A stretch of 64,000 bases of DNA. Origin: a virus. Its lineage: Duplodnaviria; Caudoviricetes. Below, in pieces: positions 5,223 to 59,258 of this stretch. Under the pieces are notes generated by a model. It was not told where the DNA came from. It made no database searches and saw only the letters and a program-made list of their open reading frames with translations. The stretch is from positions 1,161 to 65,160 of IMG/VR virus record IMGVR_UViG_2821042281_000001; one strand, written 5' to 3'. The position numbers and the translations under genes are program-made. Position 1 is the stretch's first letter, and every line of letters starts with the position of its first letter.

Positions 5223-6515
5223 CTAGGCCACCCTCCTCTCGCTCGCCACATTATCATTCGCGGCCACGGGCACACGCGCAGCGCCCTTGACCATCGCCGG
5301 CGTCATCCTGTCCCTGGCAACTTCGCCGTATTCTTTGTGATACGTAATACGCTTGGCTGACCTGCCGGACAGCCAGCCGCCGCTTGCGGCATAGTCATCC
5401 TTGGCGGCAAGCGTTTCGTGGCGCTCGACATACATCAGGTTTGTCTTGATGCCTTCGTCGGAATGCTTATGGCCAATGTGGCAGTAGGCCGACAAACTCA
5501 GGCCGTATTCTTTGCGGAACAGGCCAGCCATCGTCACGTCGACGTTGTTGATAGTCCGCTTGTCGCCGTGATGGTAAAACAGCGCTGTCTTGCCCCACGA
5601 GTAGACGTGGTAGTGCATCGGTGAGTTGTCAACGCTTATGCGAGGCTCGTGCTCGTACATGGCCGCGAGCATCTCACGCAGCCATGCCGACGATGCCGGA
5701 TCATGATTGCCGGACGCCATAATAACGTGAACATGCTGGTGCTTCTGCAGAAGCATGTCGATGATGCGCCGGACTGTGCGGATGACGACGCGAATAACCT
5801 TCTGCAAGCGGCTATCCGCGTCTAGGACGTGCCTATGAGCAGGCGTAACGCTTTCGAGGCTATCATGATGCATCAGATCACCCAACTGGGCCAGCACAGC
5901 CGTGTGCGCTTGCGGGGCGGCGGCTACGGCTGCAGCGAACCAGTCCAGTAGCAACTGCTCTGCAATGCGAAGATCGTAATCATCTCCCGTTTCTTCACGC
6001 CATGCCAGCATACCGAAGTGACTGTCTGTCACGACGAACTGGTTAAGTAGTTCGGACGCAACATGCGCAGGAGGAGGCGTAATCGTGACGCGCGGTAGGC
6101 TTTCGGACAGCGCTGCAACAGTTGCATCCAGAATGGCGCGCTGCTGTTGTACATCAGCCCGCTCCATAATGTGCTGAGTAATCACCCGGCCTTCGGCATT
6201 CACGAGCGTCGTCTTGCCTTTGACAGCAAGGCCTGCAGTCGGCTCATAAACTGGACCAGCCTCTTTCGTCTGGCGCACGTAAGTGCCGTTCGGCGTCTCG
6301 GTCAGGCTTTTGATCGCATAGCCGGGCAATGTCGGTGACGGACCCAGCAGCCCAATCTCAGCGGCCCGCTTAATGCTGTCGTGAAATGCCGACTTCTTTA
6401 TGCCAAGCGCCGCCGCAGCCTTAACCAGCGTGCCGTGCTCGCGGTAAGCCTCCGCTCGGCGCAGGAGTTCTTCGTGTGAAAGGCGCGCACCCGCGCCCTG
6501 TCTGTCATGGGACAT
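5223..6515 (-). CDS. Calcineurin-like metallophosphoesterase with N-terminal HTH
   Basis: TDSHFG, LGDLMH, SGNHD, HHGD, IGHKH motifs; AAAALGIKKS HTH. Confidence 0.85.
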   Translation of the reverse strand: MSHDRQGAGARLSHEELLRRAEAYREHGTLVKAAAALGIKKSAFHDSIKRAAEIGLLGPSPTLPGYAIKSLTETPNGTYVRQTKEAGPVYEPTAGLAVKGKTTLVNAEGRVITQHIMERADVQQQRAILDATVAALSESLPRVTITPPPAHVASELLNQFVVTDSHFGMLAWREETGDDYDLRIAEQLLLDWFAAAVAAAPQAHTAVLAQLGDLMHHDSLESVTPAHRHVLDADSRLQKVIRVVIRTVRRIIDMLLQKHQHVHVIMASGNHDPASSAWLREMLAAMYEHEPRISVDNSPMHYHVYSWGKTALFYHHGDKRTINNVDVTMAGLFRKEYGLSLSAYCHIGHKHSDEGIKTNLMYVERHETLAAKDDYAASGGWLSGRSAKRITYHKEYGEVARDRMTPAMVKGAARVPVAANDNVASERRVA

Positions 6516-54336: not shown

Positions 54337-55179
54337 TTAATTGGCCGTCTTATACTGCGACCAGATAATCGCGGCGAATTCCTGCCGATCAGTTTCGTCT
54401 AGCGCGGCCCATGCATCCCAGAACGCTTGACGCTTTCTGTCTTTGTTTGATGCCACTGCTTTTGCGGCGCCCTCGGCAATAATCTCAAGTGCCTTATCGG
54501 CGGTTATTGGCTTGGGCTCCGGCGCTGGGCGTGCGCTGACCTTTTCGCCCCGCTCTGCTCGGCTGATAAGGTTTTCGCGTTCTTCGTCAGGCAGACCAAT
54601 GAGCGCATCCATTTCGACGCCCTTGTCTAGGCTAGTGCCCACGATGCGTTGAATGTCATGGCCGAGTTTTTCGGCGCGAGATATTTTTTGGGCTATTTGT
54701 GATTTGCCATTTCCTGTCAAAGAAGCAATCTCACGCGCAAAGTCACCCGTTTTTGGGCGCCCCATACTTTTGTCCGAATTCCGGACAAAAGTCTCTCTGC
54801 GCATTTCTTCCCAAATAGGCTTCCGCCGAGCAATGTGCGATGCCTCTTCGGCTGGCGACAGTTCCGAACGGGCCAGATTCTCGTCGATTTCCATGAGCTC
54901 GGCATGAAGATCGTCAACGTCATGAACGACGCATTCTACATATTCTTCGCCGTTCATTTTGAGTGCCGCTAAGCGGTGACGGCCATAAATCAAAACCGCC
55001 ACCCCATCGCATAACTCTCCGTCATCCATGACGATTTCGTCACGGATACAGACCGCCGGCGGGTTCATTAGTCCGACTTCGGCAATGCTCTTCGCAATCT
55101 CTGCAACTTTAGCTCCATCAGCATTACGATGGCGATTGCCGATAAATATGTCGTCAATGAATAACCGCCGACGTTCCAT
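54337..55179 (-). CDS. ParB/Srx N-terminal domain protein
   Basis: SIAEVGLMNP..YGRHRLAA..EIDENLARSELS. Confidence 0.88.
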   Translation of the reverse strand: MERRRLFIDDIFIGNRHRNADGAKVAEIAKSIAEVGLMNPPAVCIRDEIVMDDGELCDGVAVLIYGRHRLAALKMNGEEYVECVVHDVDDLHAELMEIDENLARSELSPAEEASHIARRKPIWEEMRRETFVRNSDKSMGRPKTGDFAREIASLTGNGKSQIAQKISRAEKLGHDIQRIVGTSLDKGVEMDALIGLPDEERENLISRAERGEKVSARPAPEPKPITADKALEIIAEGAAKAVASNKDRKRQAFWDAWAALDETDRQEFAAIIWSQYKTAN

Positions 55180-55181
55180 AG

Positions 55182-56285
55182 TCAGATCACCTCAGGCAAA
55201 GATGCGGGGGATGTGGCAACGGCCAGGGATCGGCCTGCGCGCCAGATCAGGAAGTGATGCACGATCCCACGTGTCCACTGCTGGCGTGTCCACTTGACTG
55301 TCTTTTCGCGCAAAGCCTCGCGAAGCGTATAAATTGGGTTACGACGCTTTAGCATCTCACCAGTGCGGAAGGCGGTGAAGAAATGACGGATATCATCTTC
55401 ATTAGCGCCCAAGGAAAGAAGGTGGAGCGCGGCGACACCTGGTGCAGCAGACCCAAGTCCCTTCTGTGGATTTCCGATAAGGGAATTGGCAAGAACGATG
55501 TGCTCTTGGTTCTCGAAATAATAGTCCTGCGCTTCTGCAGGTGTAGCCGAGCGACCATTGTACATCTCGAACGCAAGGTTTGAGATAGCGGACATATGCA
55601 CAGCGTTAGGAATGCTTGCGATATTCAACCGATCAACGCCGGTGCGCTTGCGACCGATATTAACGGTGCGCATCGATTCCTTGGTGACGCCGTACGAGAC
55701 GACCGATTCAATTGGCTGGCCAGTCAGCAAGACGCCGAAAGTGCGATGCTGACCATCGTTCACCGTGCCGTCCTGACATACAACGATTGACTCGCCGTTT
55801 AGATCAAAGCGATGGGTTGCGATATCTCGCATAATAGCGGCAAGGTTGGCGGCATTAACGCGGCGGTTGCCGATGTTGTGCATGAGTAGGATCTGCGCTC
55901 GTTCTGGCGAAATGATATGCACATTGGCGCGAGCATCGCCATCGCGAACAAGGCGCTGATGCCATTCCGATGCCTTGGTGAATTCTGGCGATTTGCCATA
56001 GATGAAGAAACCAGTTACCTGCCCCACGTTGATCAGGCGAGCAGCAAGGCGGGCAGCGTCTTCAAACTTTCCTTCACGTACCAGGCGGAACACCTTGTCG
56101 TGTTCGGTTTCTTCAACCGCAACGAGACGTGTTGCAGCTACCTTAGGCGCATCTTCAAGAATACGCGGTTTGGCAACCGCTGCAGGTTTATGAAACAGCG
56201 CTTCCGCACGAGCCCGTTCTGGCGTGTATCTCTTGCTGCGGGTCGTTACAGGGATTTCTCGGCCTCTGGCCTGTACAATCTGCAT
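55182..56285 (-). CDS. ParB-like DGQHR-motif protein
   Basis: NRRV..NGESIV..DGQHR. Confidence 0.8.
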   Translation of the reverse strand: MQIVQARGREIPVTTRSKRYTPERARAEALFHKPAAVAKPRILEDAPKVAATRLVAVEETEHDKVFRLVREGKFEDAARLAARLINVGQVTGFFIYGKSPEFTKASEWHQRLVRDGDARANVHIISPERAQILLMHNIGNRRVNAANLAAIMRDIATHRFDLNGESIVVCQDGTVNDGQHRTFGVLLTGQPIESVVSYGVTKESMRTVNIGRKRTGVDRLNIASIPNAVHMSAISNLAFEMYNGRSATPAEAQDYYFENQEHIVLANSLIGNPQKGLGSAAPGVAALHLLSLGANEDDIRHFFTAFRTGEMLKRRNPIYTLREALREKTVKWTRQQWTRGIVHHFLIWRAGRSLAVATSPASLPEVI

Positions 56286-56318
56286 GTCATTCTCCTCATG
56301 GTTGTGTTTCAATTTTCA

Positions 56319-56623
56319 GCATGCTTATGTGTAGACGTCGGTGGGGAGCAAATAGCCACTCTGCAGCTTCGGCTGTTCTCATGTAGGGCAAGCGGCGCGT
56401 TACTGCGTTCGCTGAGAGGCGGCTTTAACCGTCAGAGCGTGGAGGTATTGGCTTATGCTGAAACCTAAGTTGGTCGCAGTTCGTGCTTATGTGCGTCTGC
56501 GATTTGGCCGCCTTGAGCATGTGTGTGCTCATTGGCGGTCGTGGCCGGGACAACTGGCCTTCGATTTCTAGGCTGGCATTACAAACCAGCTCAATCCCCA
56601 CCGACGCCTGCTAATAAGCATGC
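56319..56623. repeat. 29-bp imperfect inverted repeat (56319-56347 / 56595-56623) enclosing a small ORF
   Basis: GCATGCTTAT..CGTCGGTGGGGA vs TCCCCACCGACG..ATAAGCATGC. Confidence 0.85.
56455..56571 (+). CDS. 38-aa basic peptide ending QLAFDF (not in ORF track)
   Basis: GGAGGT SD; MLKPKLVAVRAYVRLRFGRLEHVCAHWRSWPGQLAFDF. Confidence 0.65.
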   Translation: MLKPKLVAVRAYVRLRFGRLEHVCAHWRSWPGQLAFDF

Positions 56624-56668
56624 GTCGCGCGCCACTAGCCATCTCAGGCTAGCAGCGTCCCTATTGTC

Positions 56669-56710
56669 CTACGGCGGTCGGTTGTCATTGTCTGCGGGTC
56701 TGGGGGCCAT
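56669..56710 (-). CDS. 13-aa mini-ORF MAPRPADNDNRPP, first ORF after the leftward promoter
   Basis: ACACGAGGAG at 56717-56726, 6 nt from ATG. Confidence 0.45.
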   Translation of the reverse strand: MAPRPADNDNRPP

Positions 56711-56847
56711 CTTCATCTCCTCGTGTTTTCTGGTCGGTCAGCCTTGGGTTGGTACTATCTGTCCGGTCGCGGAAGCTCCGGCTTCTCTTTGTGCAACTCA
56801 TTCTCCTTTTCTGTGCTCCGGTCTTCTTTGGGCCGGTTGATGGTTGG

Positions 56848-56944
56848 AATATATTGGGATTTATCCCATCTGTCAATGTGATTTTTCCCATTTTTGCAAA
56901 TAGGTACAAAAAATGCCGCAAACGCGGCATTGTGATTTATCACT
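56848..56944 (-). promoter_or_regulatory. Leftward promoter with three operators
   Basis: TTGACA-N17-TATATT (56876-56848); TGGGATTTATCCCA 56855, TGTGATTTTTCCCA 56877, TGTGATTTATCACT 56931. Confidence 0.85.
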
Positions 56945-56953
56945 ATAGAAGTG

Positions 56954-57568
56954 TCAGATCCGTATCCGTCGAGCCTGTCGAGGCGGCACGATAGATTCAA
57001 TGTCAGCAGCCCAAATGACCTCTTGATCGCGCATGGTTGGGCCATTCAGTGATTCCAGATCATAAAGACCTGGTCGAGACCCGCGCGTCAGCCGCTTCAA
57101 CAGCGCTCGACCATCGCTTAGCCCCACGACGACCATATCGCCAAGCATTTCGTCGGACGGGGCCAGCTTCTGATCACTATAAAAAATCAACGCCCCGTCT
57201 ACAAAAGTCCCCATGGAGTAACCCTGCACTTCGACGGCTACCGACTCTGGCCCTGCGCCGGGCGGGATAATGACATCCCCGAATCCACCGTCGCCATTTC
57301 CATAGATTATTTCACCGCTCGTATCAGCCCCGACCCGTCCTACCACTGAAGTTACTCCCGGTTCTTCCCCGATAAGATACCCGACAGTGGTATTCAGAAT
57401 GTTAGCGACCGACTTCAGAGAGTCGATTTTGGGAACGGCACCGCGATCCAAGATGTCGCGTACGAAAGTCTCGCCCATGCCGGCCTCCAGCGACAGGGCC
57501 TTCATACTCCAGCCGCCTTTTTTCATCGCGGCCCGAAATCGATCTTTGTCTATAGTGACCTGCTTCAT
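56954..57568 (-). CDS. cI: CI-like repressor (HTH plus S24 peptidase)
   Basis: Cro/CI HTH; VQGYSM, LLKRL; flanked by operators. Confidence 0.92.
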   Translation of the reverse strand: MKQVTIDKDRFRAAMKKGGWSMKALSLEAGMGETFVRDILDRGAVPKIDSLKSVANILNTTVGYLIGEEPGVTSVVGRVGADTSGEIIYGNGDGGFGDVIIPPGAGPESVAVEVQGYSMGTFVDGALIFYSDQKLAPSDEMLGDMVVVGLSDGRALLKRLTRGSRPGLYDLESLNGPTMRDQEVIWAADIESIVPPRQARRIRI

Positions 57569-57571
57569 AAA

Positions 57572-57647
57572 TGGGTTTTACCCCATCTCGTATTTTTCGT
57601 CACTTGGGAAATTTCCCATTGACTAATGTGATTTATCCCATTACATT
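57572..57647 (+). promoter_or_regulatory. Rightward promoter with three operators
   Basis: TTGACT-N17-TACATT (57619-57647); TGGGTTTTACCCCA 57572, TGGGAAATTTCCCA 57605, TGTGATTTATCCCA 57627. Confidence 0.85.
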
Positions 57648-57719
57648 TTGCACAACAGCACGAAGAAGCGACCGACGCCGATCTGCTGACCACCGACCAA
57701 AACACGAGGAGAAACCCAC

Positions 57720-57983
57720 ATGACCGCAAAAGCACCGAGAAGAAGCCCCAAAGCCCGTCCGAATGAAATCATCGGCGGCGGATTCTTTGTATTCCGCCGC
57801 GGCAAGAAGACTGGCCGCGTTGGCGTCTTCACCACCATGCCATACGAACACGGCTCGTTTGAGCAGGCCGTCGCAGAAGCTACCCGCTTAGCTGCCCTGT
57901 GCCCCGGCGAGATGTTCGAAGTTTTTCAGACGAGCGGCGCCGTAGCCTGCTGCACGCCGGTAGATCTGGCGGAGGCTGCGTAA
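57720..57983 (+). CDS. Early hypothetical protein
   Basis: ACACGAGGAG leader; EH.S...A..EA.RLA. Confidence 0.75.
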   Translation: MTAKAPRRSPKARPNEIIGGGFFVFRRGKKTGRVGVFTTMPYEHGSFEQAVAEATRLAALCPGEMFEVFQTSGAVACCTPVDLAEAA

Positions 57984-57984
57984 A

Positions 57985-58329
57985 ATGGAGCGGAACCCCA
58001 CCACCGAACTTGAGAATGCGCCTCTGTCGCGCGGACAAAAGAATATCGTCGATGCGCTGGCTGCTATTTATCCGCGCCGCATTTACATCAACGACCTCGT
58101 CGACAACGTCTATGCGTTCGATCCGAATGGCGGGCCAGACAACGCACATAATACAGTGCGAGTGCAAATCAGTCGCCTCCGCAAGCTCCTGCCCTCGTTT
58201 GGCTGGACCATCCCGATGAACCATCGGGGCGCGGGCAATCACGGGTTTTATCGCCTCGAGCCAGTAGCCGCCAACGACAACCGACCGGTAGCGGATCGGG
58301 CGGCACCAGACCGGAGGGCTGCAGCATGA
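57985..58329 (+). CDS. Stand-alone OmpR/PhoB-type winged-helix protein
   Basis: NTVRVQISRLRKLL..GFYRL. Confidence 0.8.
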   Translation: MERNPTTELENAPLSRGQKNIVDALAAIYPRRIYINDLVDNVYAFDPNGGPDNAHNTVRVQISRLRKLLPSFGWTIPMNHRGAGNHGFYRLEPVAANDNRPVADRAAPDRRAAA

Positions 58330-59258
58330 TCTCAAACAACGAAAGGGAGTTGCGGGCTGCCTTAAACCGTTCACTTTCCGATCAAGCTATGACGGCATTC
58401 CTTGCGATGCCTGATGATGAAAAGGCGCAGTTCGCCAACCGCTTCAATAATTTTTTCAGCAAAGTTTGCCGCGCTCAGTGGCGCATCGAAAGGGCTGCAG
58501 CATGAACCGCGCTTTGCTTGAACTGCTCGCCGACGACGAGTTCGAAACGGAAACCGACACACCGAAGGCCGGCAATGTCGAGCCTATGCGCCGACCTGAC
58601 TACAAGGCCAGGAAACATGGTCGCCCACAGCCGTGGCTACGTTATGCCGCCCGCGAAGCGGTCGAGATGACCGTCGTTGTAGCCTTTTGCGTTGCCGCGT
58701 GCAGCGTTGGGTTGGGGTTCTCCGCATGAGGCACGAAAGATAGCGACGGGGCGGTTAAGCCCCCGATCCTCCAAGAATGACAGCCCTTGCGCATCTAGCG
58801 CCACGGCTTTTTGCACCCACCAAAACACGAGGAGACCCTATGTCCAGATGCATCACACACGCCGTTATGGCGCCCATCCTGAACGCCGCCGAATTCCAGC
58901 AGCAAGGCACGACCGCTGCGCAGGTCCTGTCTATTTCAAAGGCAGTGCGCGCTCTTGGCTATCACTCCAAAGCTGAGACGCTACGCAACACCGCTTTCGA
59001 ACTGGCGCGCATTACTGGCGTTCGGTTCCGCTATGGGGCTCCGCGCCAGCGTCGCAATCCAGCCAATGACAACCGCCGTCGGCTGCGCGCAGCATGACTA
59101 CCGCCACCACCCGCCGCATTGACGCGGCATATCTCAACGCGCTGCGGCTTGGCCCGCAGCGTATCGGATATCCAGGCATCCCTTTGCCTGTTGCCTGTCG
59201 TCTGGCGGCAACCGGTAAGGCGCGAGTGCTTGGCAATGTCGTCGAGGTGCGCCCATGA
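58326..59258 (+). CDS. Four small early ORFs (58326-58505, 58502-58729, 58840-59097, 59094-59258)
   Basis: ATGA coupling; ACACGAGGAG leader at 58825. Confidence 0.6.

Follow-up and report, generated by a model that had tools for sequence, protein, structure and literature searches.

Leader peptides on which the ribosome pauses during termination are a known kind of regulator and are known from a few bacterial operons. TnaC (24 amino acids) and PepNL (14 amino acids) are encoded by short upstream open reading frames (ORFs) that arrest the ribosome at their stop codon and regulate the downstream genes in cis (PMC11890864, PMC5021804). The last residue of TnaC is Pro, and the stalled ribosome covers the RNA past the stop codon and keeps Rho off it (PMC11890864, PMC5021804). 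In the present work, we describe a short ORF, called mini-ORF 2, in the leader that opens the early leftward operon of a virus of the Caudoviricetes. The DNA analysed, hereafter the window, is a stretch of 64,000 nucleotides (64 kb; 55% G+C) taken from the 65,160-bp single-contig virus record IMGVR_UViG_2821042281_000001, and all coordinates are those of this stretch. Mini-ORF 2 is best read as a putative translated leader peptide acting in cis, a reading to which we give a probability of about one half.

In the window, mini-ORF 2 has a ribosome-binding site of its own (GGAG, a gap of 6 nucleotides (nt), ATG) and is located about 130 nt past the predicted transcript start and 384 nt ahead of the first long gene of the operon. 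On the minus strand, the 10-mer ACACGAGGAG (56726-56717) is followed, after 6 nt, by the ATG (56710-56708), and the frame encoding the peptide MAPRPADNDNRPP is closed by TAG (56671-56669). The initial annotation of this locus had described an exact leader sequence followed by a 13-residue peptide lacking a terminal Ala-Ala, behind a repressor-controlled TTGACA/TATATT promoter. Leader and peptide were indeed found at 56669-56726, the peptide ends in Pro-Pro, and the promoter is present at 56876-56848 with two operator-like palindromes over it. Two elements of that description needed correction: mini-ORF 2 comes second in the operon, after another 13-codon ORF (mini-ORF 1, 56796-56755), and the motif reported as ANDN-like reads A-D-N-D-N in the peptide, whereas the tails of the phage proteins carry A-N-D-N. 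When short ORFs of 10-20 amino acids with GGAG or GAGG 4-10 nt before an ATG were listed over the 65,160-bp record, 11 were obtained, and mini-ORF 2 was the only one ended by Pro.

Relatives of the locus were assembled by several routes. The repressor protein led to seven viral contigs and three genomes (Brucella pseudintermedia, a Rhizobiales bacterium and an Ochrobactrum species), and a query with the hairpin sequence led to two phages with a different immunity region. A 20-nt anchor gave nine metagenome contigs, comprising five true relatives (two duplicates) and four chance matches with unrelated flanks, which were dropped (L020, L022, L025 and L026). Within the host genus, the leader DNA of the window matched 11 of 44 genomes, and a six-frame repressor search was positive in 12 of 44 at E <=1e-10, three of these matches being close and nine distant. 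Across the host family, the anchor pattern occurred in a single genome out of 401, that of the host (G001). A degenerate leader pattern had no match in viral contigs, no named phage was matched by blastn with positions 55000-58500, and tblastn with the repressor recovered only relatives of about 30% identity among the named phages.

The leader module was defined by criteria independent of any particular sequence: a frame of 10-22 amino acids with a Shine-Dalgarno sequence and an ATG, closed by a Pro codon and TAG, and a hairpin of 8 bp or more 8-23 nt further on. Exactly one ORF of this kind was found in each of 47 of the 55 sources (the window and 46 loci, many of them duplicate cuts); the eight sources with none are six unrelated loci and two in which only a distant repressor match is present. 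These 47 sources gave 20 distinct coding sequences of mini-ORF 2, corresponding to 18 peptides of 12-17 amino acids in about seven sequence families. Together with mini-ORF 1 and an RNA hairpin, mini-ORF 2 is kept across a whole group of temperate, Ochrobactrum-type phages, in which this module is where the early leftward operon begins. Upstream of it, at least five promoter/operator sequence types were distinguished by eye.

The Shine-Dalgarno sequence, the start codon and the open frame are preserved in all 20 versions. The last residue is Pro in each of them, encoded by CCG, CCA or CCT, and the peptides end in Pro-Pro (14 out of 18), Gly-Pro (three) or Ser-Pro (one). The stop codon is TAG in 20/20, TAG being among the search criteria; as a baseline, 71 long ORFs from the phage, taken as a crude set, include 18 with a TAG stop and five with a Pro end. 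Furthermore, every version contains a single AGA codon, situated 10-12 codons ahead of the stop and never replaced by AGG or CGN, although AGA represents only 87 of the 1,323 Arg codons (6.6%) in the same crude set. An ORF ending in AGA-TAG, mini-ORF 1, was observed upstream of mini-ORF 2 in all 20 distinct sequences, AGA being its last codon each time. In some relatives, it starts with ATG behind a strong Shine-Dalgarno sequence. Its coding signal is weak, the variable sites being distributed 7:3:10 over the three codon positions.

Beyond the stop codon, a covarying hairpin of 10-11 bp (hairpin 1) follows mini-ORF 2 in 20/20 versions, separated from it by 11-13 nt in 19 versions and by 17 nt in the remaining one. 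The comparison of six versions showed pairing in 60 of 60 cells, and 6 of the 10 pairs change on both sides; the covariation score was reached by none of 500 shuffles, and controls slid along the alignment paired in 27-58% of cells. Because G-U pairs are frequent, hairpin 1 folds in the RNA of the operon strand. RNAalifold applied to 14 leaders and minimum-free-energy folding of nine leaders returned only two hairpins, with no common switch.

Next, the substitution pattern of mini-ORF 2 was analysed by counting variable sites inside four groups of similar sequences, whose members are related, so that the changes are not independent events. In the last eight codons, the variable sites were distributed 5:2:12 by codon position (binomial P = 0.0074 for at least 12 of 19 at the third position), with 10 synonymous and 9 non-synonymous sites. 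The N-terminal part gave 8:8:8, with 2 synonymous and 22 non-synonymous sites, none of which makes a stop codon. Between the window and one relative (L028), the last ten codons differ by three synonymous and no non-synonymous changes. Over the 20 versions, the last Pro codon varies at its third position only. Reading through the stop codon was considered and rejected, the extensions differing between families when compared by eye.

The features that stay constant are Pro-TAG at the end, the AGA codon and the hairpin distance, and they belong to the message and the ribosome on it, not to a free peptide. This geometry fits a programmed pause whose duration would control the fate of the transcript beyond it. 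From these features, we infer the following chain of steps. Upon derepression, the leader, made up of a 5' hairpin, mini-ORF 1 with its AGA-UAG end, mini-ORF 2 with its Pro-UAG end and hairpin 1, would be transcribed and both mini-ORFs translated. The ribosome on mini-ORF 2 would be slow to release its peptide, because the chain ends in Pro, mostly Pro-Pro, ahead of UAG, a stop codon read by RF1 only. While waiting, this ribosome would cover the spacer of 11-13 nt, its front edge abutting the foot of hairpin 1, and the rare AGA, one ribosome length behind, would slow or queue a second ribosome. The duration of the pause would then set how much of the transcript continues into, or survives as, downstream mRNA. 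Several routes may be envisaged: the paused ribosome may keep Rho or an endonuclease away from the single-stranded spacer, the step under control may be Rho loading on the mildly C-rich downstream RNA, endonuclease access to the spacer or rescue through transfer-messenger RNA (tmRNA), and hairpin 1 could block 3' exonucleases. In this way, the module would couple early leftward expression to the translation state of the host, that is, to RF1, EF-P, tRNA-Arg(UCU), tRNA-Pro and ribosome rescue. The initial annotation had proposed, as one of its options, a leader peptide controlling the folding of the adjacent inverted-repeat RNA. The link between peptide and hairpin gives the best fit, as mini-ORF 2 and its covarying hairpin occur as a pair behind the different promoter/operator types; the notion of controlled folding found no alternative fold to act upon.

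The individual elements of such a pause have been described in other bacteria. In Escherichia coli, a C-terminal Pro-Pro blocks termination in every genetic context tested and leads to stop-codon cleavage and ssrA tagging; the message is truncated 12 nt beyond the A-site codon, which corresponds to the ribosome edge, and the cleavage is suppressed when a stable structure lies downstream (PMC3834316). In E. coli, cutting of the stop codon and recruitment of tmRNA require that 3' exonucleases first come up to the paused ribosome. The YbeL-PP model used there resembles the present module, in which 14 of the 18 peptides end in Pro-Pro and the 11-13 nt spacer matches the edge at 12 nt; however, the E. 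coli stall is regarded as an accident handled by quality control, whereas here the sequence is conserved at the head of an operon, in an alphaproteobacterial host, and includes three Gly-Pro ends and one Ser-Pro end. A survey of 1,582 bacterial genomes places PP-stop and GP-stop among the protein ends that are most strongly depleted, and both release factors are slow to act after Pro or Gly (PMC7246954). Moreover, Pro-dependent stalls alter Rho-dependent as well as intrinsic termination (PMC5021804).

Compared with TnaC and PepNL, mini-ORF 2 likewise has its own ribosome-binding site in an operon leader. Its Pro end is conserved, is written with three synonymous codons and lies in a stretch with an excess of third-position changes. 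It differs from TnaC and PepNL by the absence of sequence likeness and of a known inducer, by its location in a phage early operon, by its tandem arrangement with a second mini-ORF, and by the nature of the downstream element, a hairpin at the front edge of the ribosome here and a Rho-loading site there; the arrest itself is predicted here from sequence. The module also shares with mgtL and with the trp, his and pheL leaders the principle that the speed of translation of a leader ORF at particular codons would set the transcription of the operon (PMC5021804; see also PMC3082878). Unlike the trp, his, pheL and pyrBI attenuators, it contains no run of regulatory codons, as there are one AGA and one or two Pro codons, and neither a terminator/antiterminator pair over the ORF nor a terminator with a T run, and its hairpin lies outside the ribosome. 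In the full-text literature covered, including passages of an Ochrobactrum phage paper, no leader of this kind at the head of a temperate phage early operon was found, nor was the present arrangement or its location in a phage immunity region, supplements and most subscription journals being outside this coverage.

Several observations weigh against a pausing leader peptide. First, the geometry of classic attenuation is absent, because a terminating ribosome would abut hairpin 1 instead of melting it. The terminator scan gave no T-run site at hairpin 1, which is therefore not a canonical terminator, and the minimum-free-energy folds of nine leaders contained no shared alternative fold. The C-over-G bias of the downstream RNA is modest (1.2-1.9 in 75-nt windows), and the family with the Ser-Pro end is the one that deviates in having a 17-nt spacer. 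The strength of Pro-stop pausing differs between bacterial groups (PMC7246954). In addition, the fact that the final eight residues are constrained at the amino-acid level inside families would suit a free peptide and its partner equally well. Finally, the counts for mini-ORF 2 are small, and the sequences behind them are related and not independent. As TAG and the terminal Pro had served to define the search, the primary evidence for their invariance comes from the 14 leaders obtained through synteny alone and from the loci L042-L054.

Among the other explanations, the one that survives best holds that the leader acts as RNA only, as a processing or stability element or as an antitermination site around hairpin 1, the reading frames being by-products. 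This is unlikely. In its favour, hairpin 1 is the best-supported element of the module, the N-terminal halves of the peptides evolve without codon bias, the coding signal of mini-ORF 1 is weak, and contigs from RNA libraries span the leader. It does not account, however, for the retention of the Shine-Dalgarno sequence, the start, the frame and the Pro-TAG end in 20/20 versions despite the 22 non-synonymous sites and the changes in length between 12 and 17 codons, nor for a last Pro codon varying at the third position alone and the third-position excess in the last eight codons. Furthermore, a search of Rfam gave no family match in the region, the only hits being three sub-threshold matches, two of which fall on the repressor terminator.

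The two mini-ORFs might also be directed at the host in trans. Through slow termination or drop-off of peptidyl-tRNA, strong early expression of both would tie up tRNA-Pro, tRNA-Arg(UCU), RF1 or, through real ssrA tagging, the tmRNA-SspB-ClpXP pathway, and would alter host translation or proteolysis. The ends of both mini-ORFs are of types linked to slow termination, a Pro-stop in one case and a rare AGA before the stop in the other, and a paper of 2002 is said to report that an AGA placed right before a stop codon provokes tagging. Several published cases point in the same direction. Over-expressed TnaC depletes tRNA-Pro and inhibits growth (PMC11890864), Pro-Pro-stop chains are ssrA-tagged (PMC3834316), and both minigenes and AGA codons placed early trap tRNA in the form of peptidyl-tRNA, the bar minigenes of phage lambda being cited as the phage precedent (PMC2490762). 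The module resembles bar and early AGA 'hungry' codons, in that tiny ORFs of phage early transcripts, and rare AGA codons near a start, sequester tRNA by slow termination or drop-off (PMC2490762). However, bar has 2 codons and the published effects concern 2-8 codons in hydrolase-deficient cells (PMC2490762), whereas the mini-ORFs described here have 12-17 codons and are followed by a conserved structure, and a host-directed role would leave the fixed place of the hairpin at the ribosome edge without explanation. We consider such a role improbable.

Somewhat less credible still is a free micropeptide forming a specificity pair, unrelated to SspB, with a variable phage or host protein that each phage's peptide would fit. 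The C-terminal half is conserved within families through synonymous change, and the peptides differ strongly between families. On the other hand, the repressor is 97-98% identical among phages that bear five different peptide families and is for that reason not the partner; no covarying partner came to light, no search for one having been made; the invariant Pro-TAG, AGA and spacer length are properties of the message; and the peptides are devoid of an export signal sequence.

The initial annotation had favoured an SspB decoy: a free 13-residue peptide, made in bulk at induction, would bind SspB and spare the ANDN-tailed phage proteins from ClpXP. The idea is not absurd, since the tmRNA tag of the host is ANDNKAQGYALAA and the host encodes SspB. 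In alphaproteobacteria, SspB reads the head of the tag. Apart from one position and a Lys/Arg exchange, the A-D-N-D-N-R of the peptide equals the tag head A-A-N-D-N-K, A-D-N-D-N is found again in one relative (L054) and A-V-N-D-K in the largest family, and the region of the motif is under purifying selection within its family. The window codes for 17 occurrences of NDN, of which 15 have Ala or Ser directly in front and lie mostly 9-30 residues from the protein end (among others at 5258, 41357, 42719, 51278, 58273, 59065 and 62623). In the host genome (G001, contig 1, about 1,690,081-1,693,354; L011 and L041), the tmRNA gene and sspB are about 2.4 kb apart.

The comparison with the relatives was unfavourable to this proposal. 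ANDN-tailed proteins are encoded in all 19 of the relative loci examined, whichever the peptide family, whereas exact ANDN is absent from the 20 versions of mini-ORF 2, A-x-N-D is present in 7, and 9 of the 20 sequences (eight peptides) contain nothing ANDN-like in their C-terminal stretch. The phages with a motif-free mini-ORF 2 nevertheless have 1-5 ANDN-tailed proteins in the 4-14 kb fetched. The host tag head A-A-N-D-N does not occur in mini-ORF 2, and the motif is not conserved beside the ANDN-tailed proteins. Compared with the tag head, the motif is thus inexact, is not followed by an Ala-Ala end and is not maintained across families. Moreover, each transcript would yield the 13-mer once, in competition with the cellular substrates of the adaptor, and the invariant Pro-TAG, the AGA and the fixed hairpin distance would have no explanation. 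The ANDN-like letters of the window are best explained as a family-specific variant of a constrained C-terminal stretch and not as a conserved feature. A decoy would be a minor possibility, very improbable in our opinion and limited to a sub-family, and it would leave the invariants unexplained.

Lastly, a remnant of a longer gene, also suggested initially, or a chance ORF behind a stray copy of the 10-mer can be dismissed, because no relative has a longer gene at this site and all have an ORF of 12-17 codons with the same end and the same neighbours, even if stray copies exist (the one at 54276-54267 has no start codon) and the 15 nt encoding N-D-N-R-P are identical to the coding sequence of an ANDN tail at about 50495, so that sequence capture is possible. 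Of the initial interpretation, the leader peptide was therefore retained and the decoy and the remnant were set aside.

The neighbourhood of the module is summarized in Table 1.

Table 1. Coordinates of the leader module and of the surrounding features in the window.
Feature	Position	Strand	Remarks
ParB-like gene	54337-55179	-	next after the 367-aa gene
First long gene of the leftward operon	55182-56285	-	367 amino acids (aa) from ATG after GAGGAG; matches to phrog_5931 / phrog_3264 (with the ParB-like gene)
Convergent gene within the long leader	56455-56571	+	38 aa; phrog_21154 (unknown function), E 1.9e-9
Hairpin 2	56602-56627	-	predicted in minimum-free-energy folds; with the window-type downstream module only; conserved in L028 and L009
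Hairpin 1	56630-56657	-	11-bp stem, 6-nt loop
Spacer, stop codon to hairpin 1	56658-56668	-	11 nt, purine-rich
Mini-ORF 2	56669-56710	-	13 codons; AGA at codon 4 (56701-56699); Pro-Pro-TAG end
10-mer ACACGAGGAG	56717-56726	-	includes the Shine-Dalgarno sequence of mini-ORF 2
Mini-ORF 1	56755-56796	-	TTG start at 56796, behind GGAG and a 6-nt gap; 13 codons, AGA-TAG at 56760-56755
Putative hairpin near the 5' end of the leader transcript	56818-56836	-	14-leader alignment; both arms change (by eye)
Leftward promoter with operators	56848-56891	-	predicted; TTGACA 56876-71, TATATT 56853-48, 17-nt gap; 11/12 positions match
Operator-like palindromes over the leftward promoter	56854-69 and 56876-91		two sites
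Intrinsic terminator 3' of the repressor gene	56912-56931	-	predicted; 8-bp stem followed by a T run
CI/LexA-like repressor gene	56954-57568	-	204 aa; upstream of and co-oriented with the leftward operon

The repressor matches HTH_3 and Peptidase_S24, both slightly below the Pfam cut-offs, as well as phrog_4 (transcriptional repressor, E 1e-12), and is about 33% identical by tblastn to annotated CI-like repressors of other alphaproteobacterial phages (about 30% for the nearest named phages). The pair of palindromes over the leftward promoter recurs in identical form, with the same 22-bp spacing, over the rightward promoter (57604-19 and 57626-41), and a further single palindrome is found at the start of the repressor gene (57571-86), which brings the operator-like sites of this region to five (56854-56891 and 57571-57641). 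The whole window contains eight such palindromes, against 2.06 expected, and none of 100 shuffles reached eight. Since the operator pair recurs at the rightward promoter and the palindromes exceed expectation, control of the leftward promoter by the repressor is a fair inference. A 20-nt stretch over the first arm of the repressor terminator is the same in the window and in 13 of 13 same-immunity relatives, these relatives having been retrieved or anchored by that very stretch.

Transcription of the region was looked for in contigs assembled from RNA libraries. Such contigs span mini-ORF 2 in three of four runs, belonging to two of three studies; strand, ends and levels are unreadable from contigs. 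A single contig of 590 nt bridges 56826-56238. Two studies have contig ends at 56826 and 56830, two have them at 56664 and 56667, and an adapter is present at 56600. A transcript start, with cuts in the spacer and past hairpin 2, could explain these positions, which are weak hints at most. The contig depths (35.6 and 11.9) are unfit for ranking the parts of the leader. Positions 55900-56237 and 56876-57607 are outside every contig of the four runs, and contigs cannot demonstrate absence.

The 10-mer ACACGAGGAG is a phage-wide, oriented, start-associated repeat with a Shine-Dalgarno core. It occurs in 13 exact copies in the window and in 15 when up to one mismatch is allowed, against 3.18 expected, and none of 100 shuffles reached 15. 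Twelve of the 13 exact copies sit 0-8 nt ahead of a start codon, and 11 of these 12 open ORFs of 61-430 amino acids. Similar repeats are known as the start-associated sequences of Cluster K mycobacteriophages, which have a Shine-Dalgarno core and lie in one orientation 3-7 bp before the starts of non-structural genes (PMC3203893); sequence and host phylum differ in the present case. In front of mini-ORF 2, the full 10-mer is found only in some relatives, the others having GAGGAG alone. The start-less copy, on the minus strand, falls within about 200 nt of conserved non-coding sequence ahead of the next gene (a gene with a copy of its own), and it is seen at the same place in L001, L004-L008, L010, L042 and L043.

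Downstream of the module, the region 54337-56660 is mosaic. In the window, L002, L009 and L028, hairpin 1 is separated from the start-less repeat copy by an additional module, which is absent from L001, L004-L008 and L010. It comprises a conserved stretch of about 330 nt with the convergent gene, the gene for the 367-residue protein and, in the window, the ParB-like gene. The convergent gene sits in the 384-nt gap between mini-ORF 2 and the first long gene, is missing from relatives of the other module type, and showed about 11 synonymous versus 3 non-synonymous differences, counted by eye, among four relatives. A third small ORF (56568-56642, minus strand) was rejected, as it is broken in L028 by a 1-nt deletion.

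The leader module brings together features that are easily mutated and yet invariant: the Pro-UAG end, a single AGA one ribosome length upstream, a hairpin 11-13 nt past the stop codon and a partner ORF with an AGA-UAG end. These are kept behind at least five immunity types. Even a functionless module would be informative, given its strict conservation. More speculatively, the paired mini-ORFs and the hairpin might be a sensor and effector of host ribosome release and rescue. The rate of clearance by RF1, EF-P and tmRNA would then decide early leftward expression at induction, and ssrA-tagged stalled peptides would load SspB-ClpXP and time the lifetime of the ANDN-tailed proteins. If this long shot proved true, hard-coded ssrA-like tails and programmed stall sites would be joined in one circuit. 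If the pausing leader peptide itself is real, it would provide portable pause-based control parts for alphaproteobacteria and a compact natural model of a phage that reads the translation state of its host on commitment to lytic growth.

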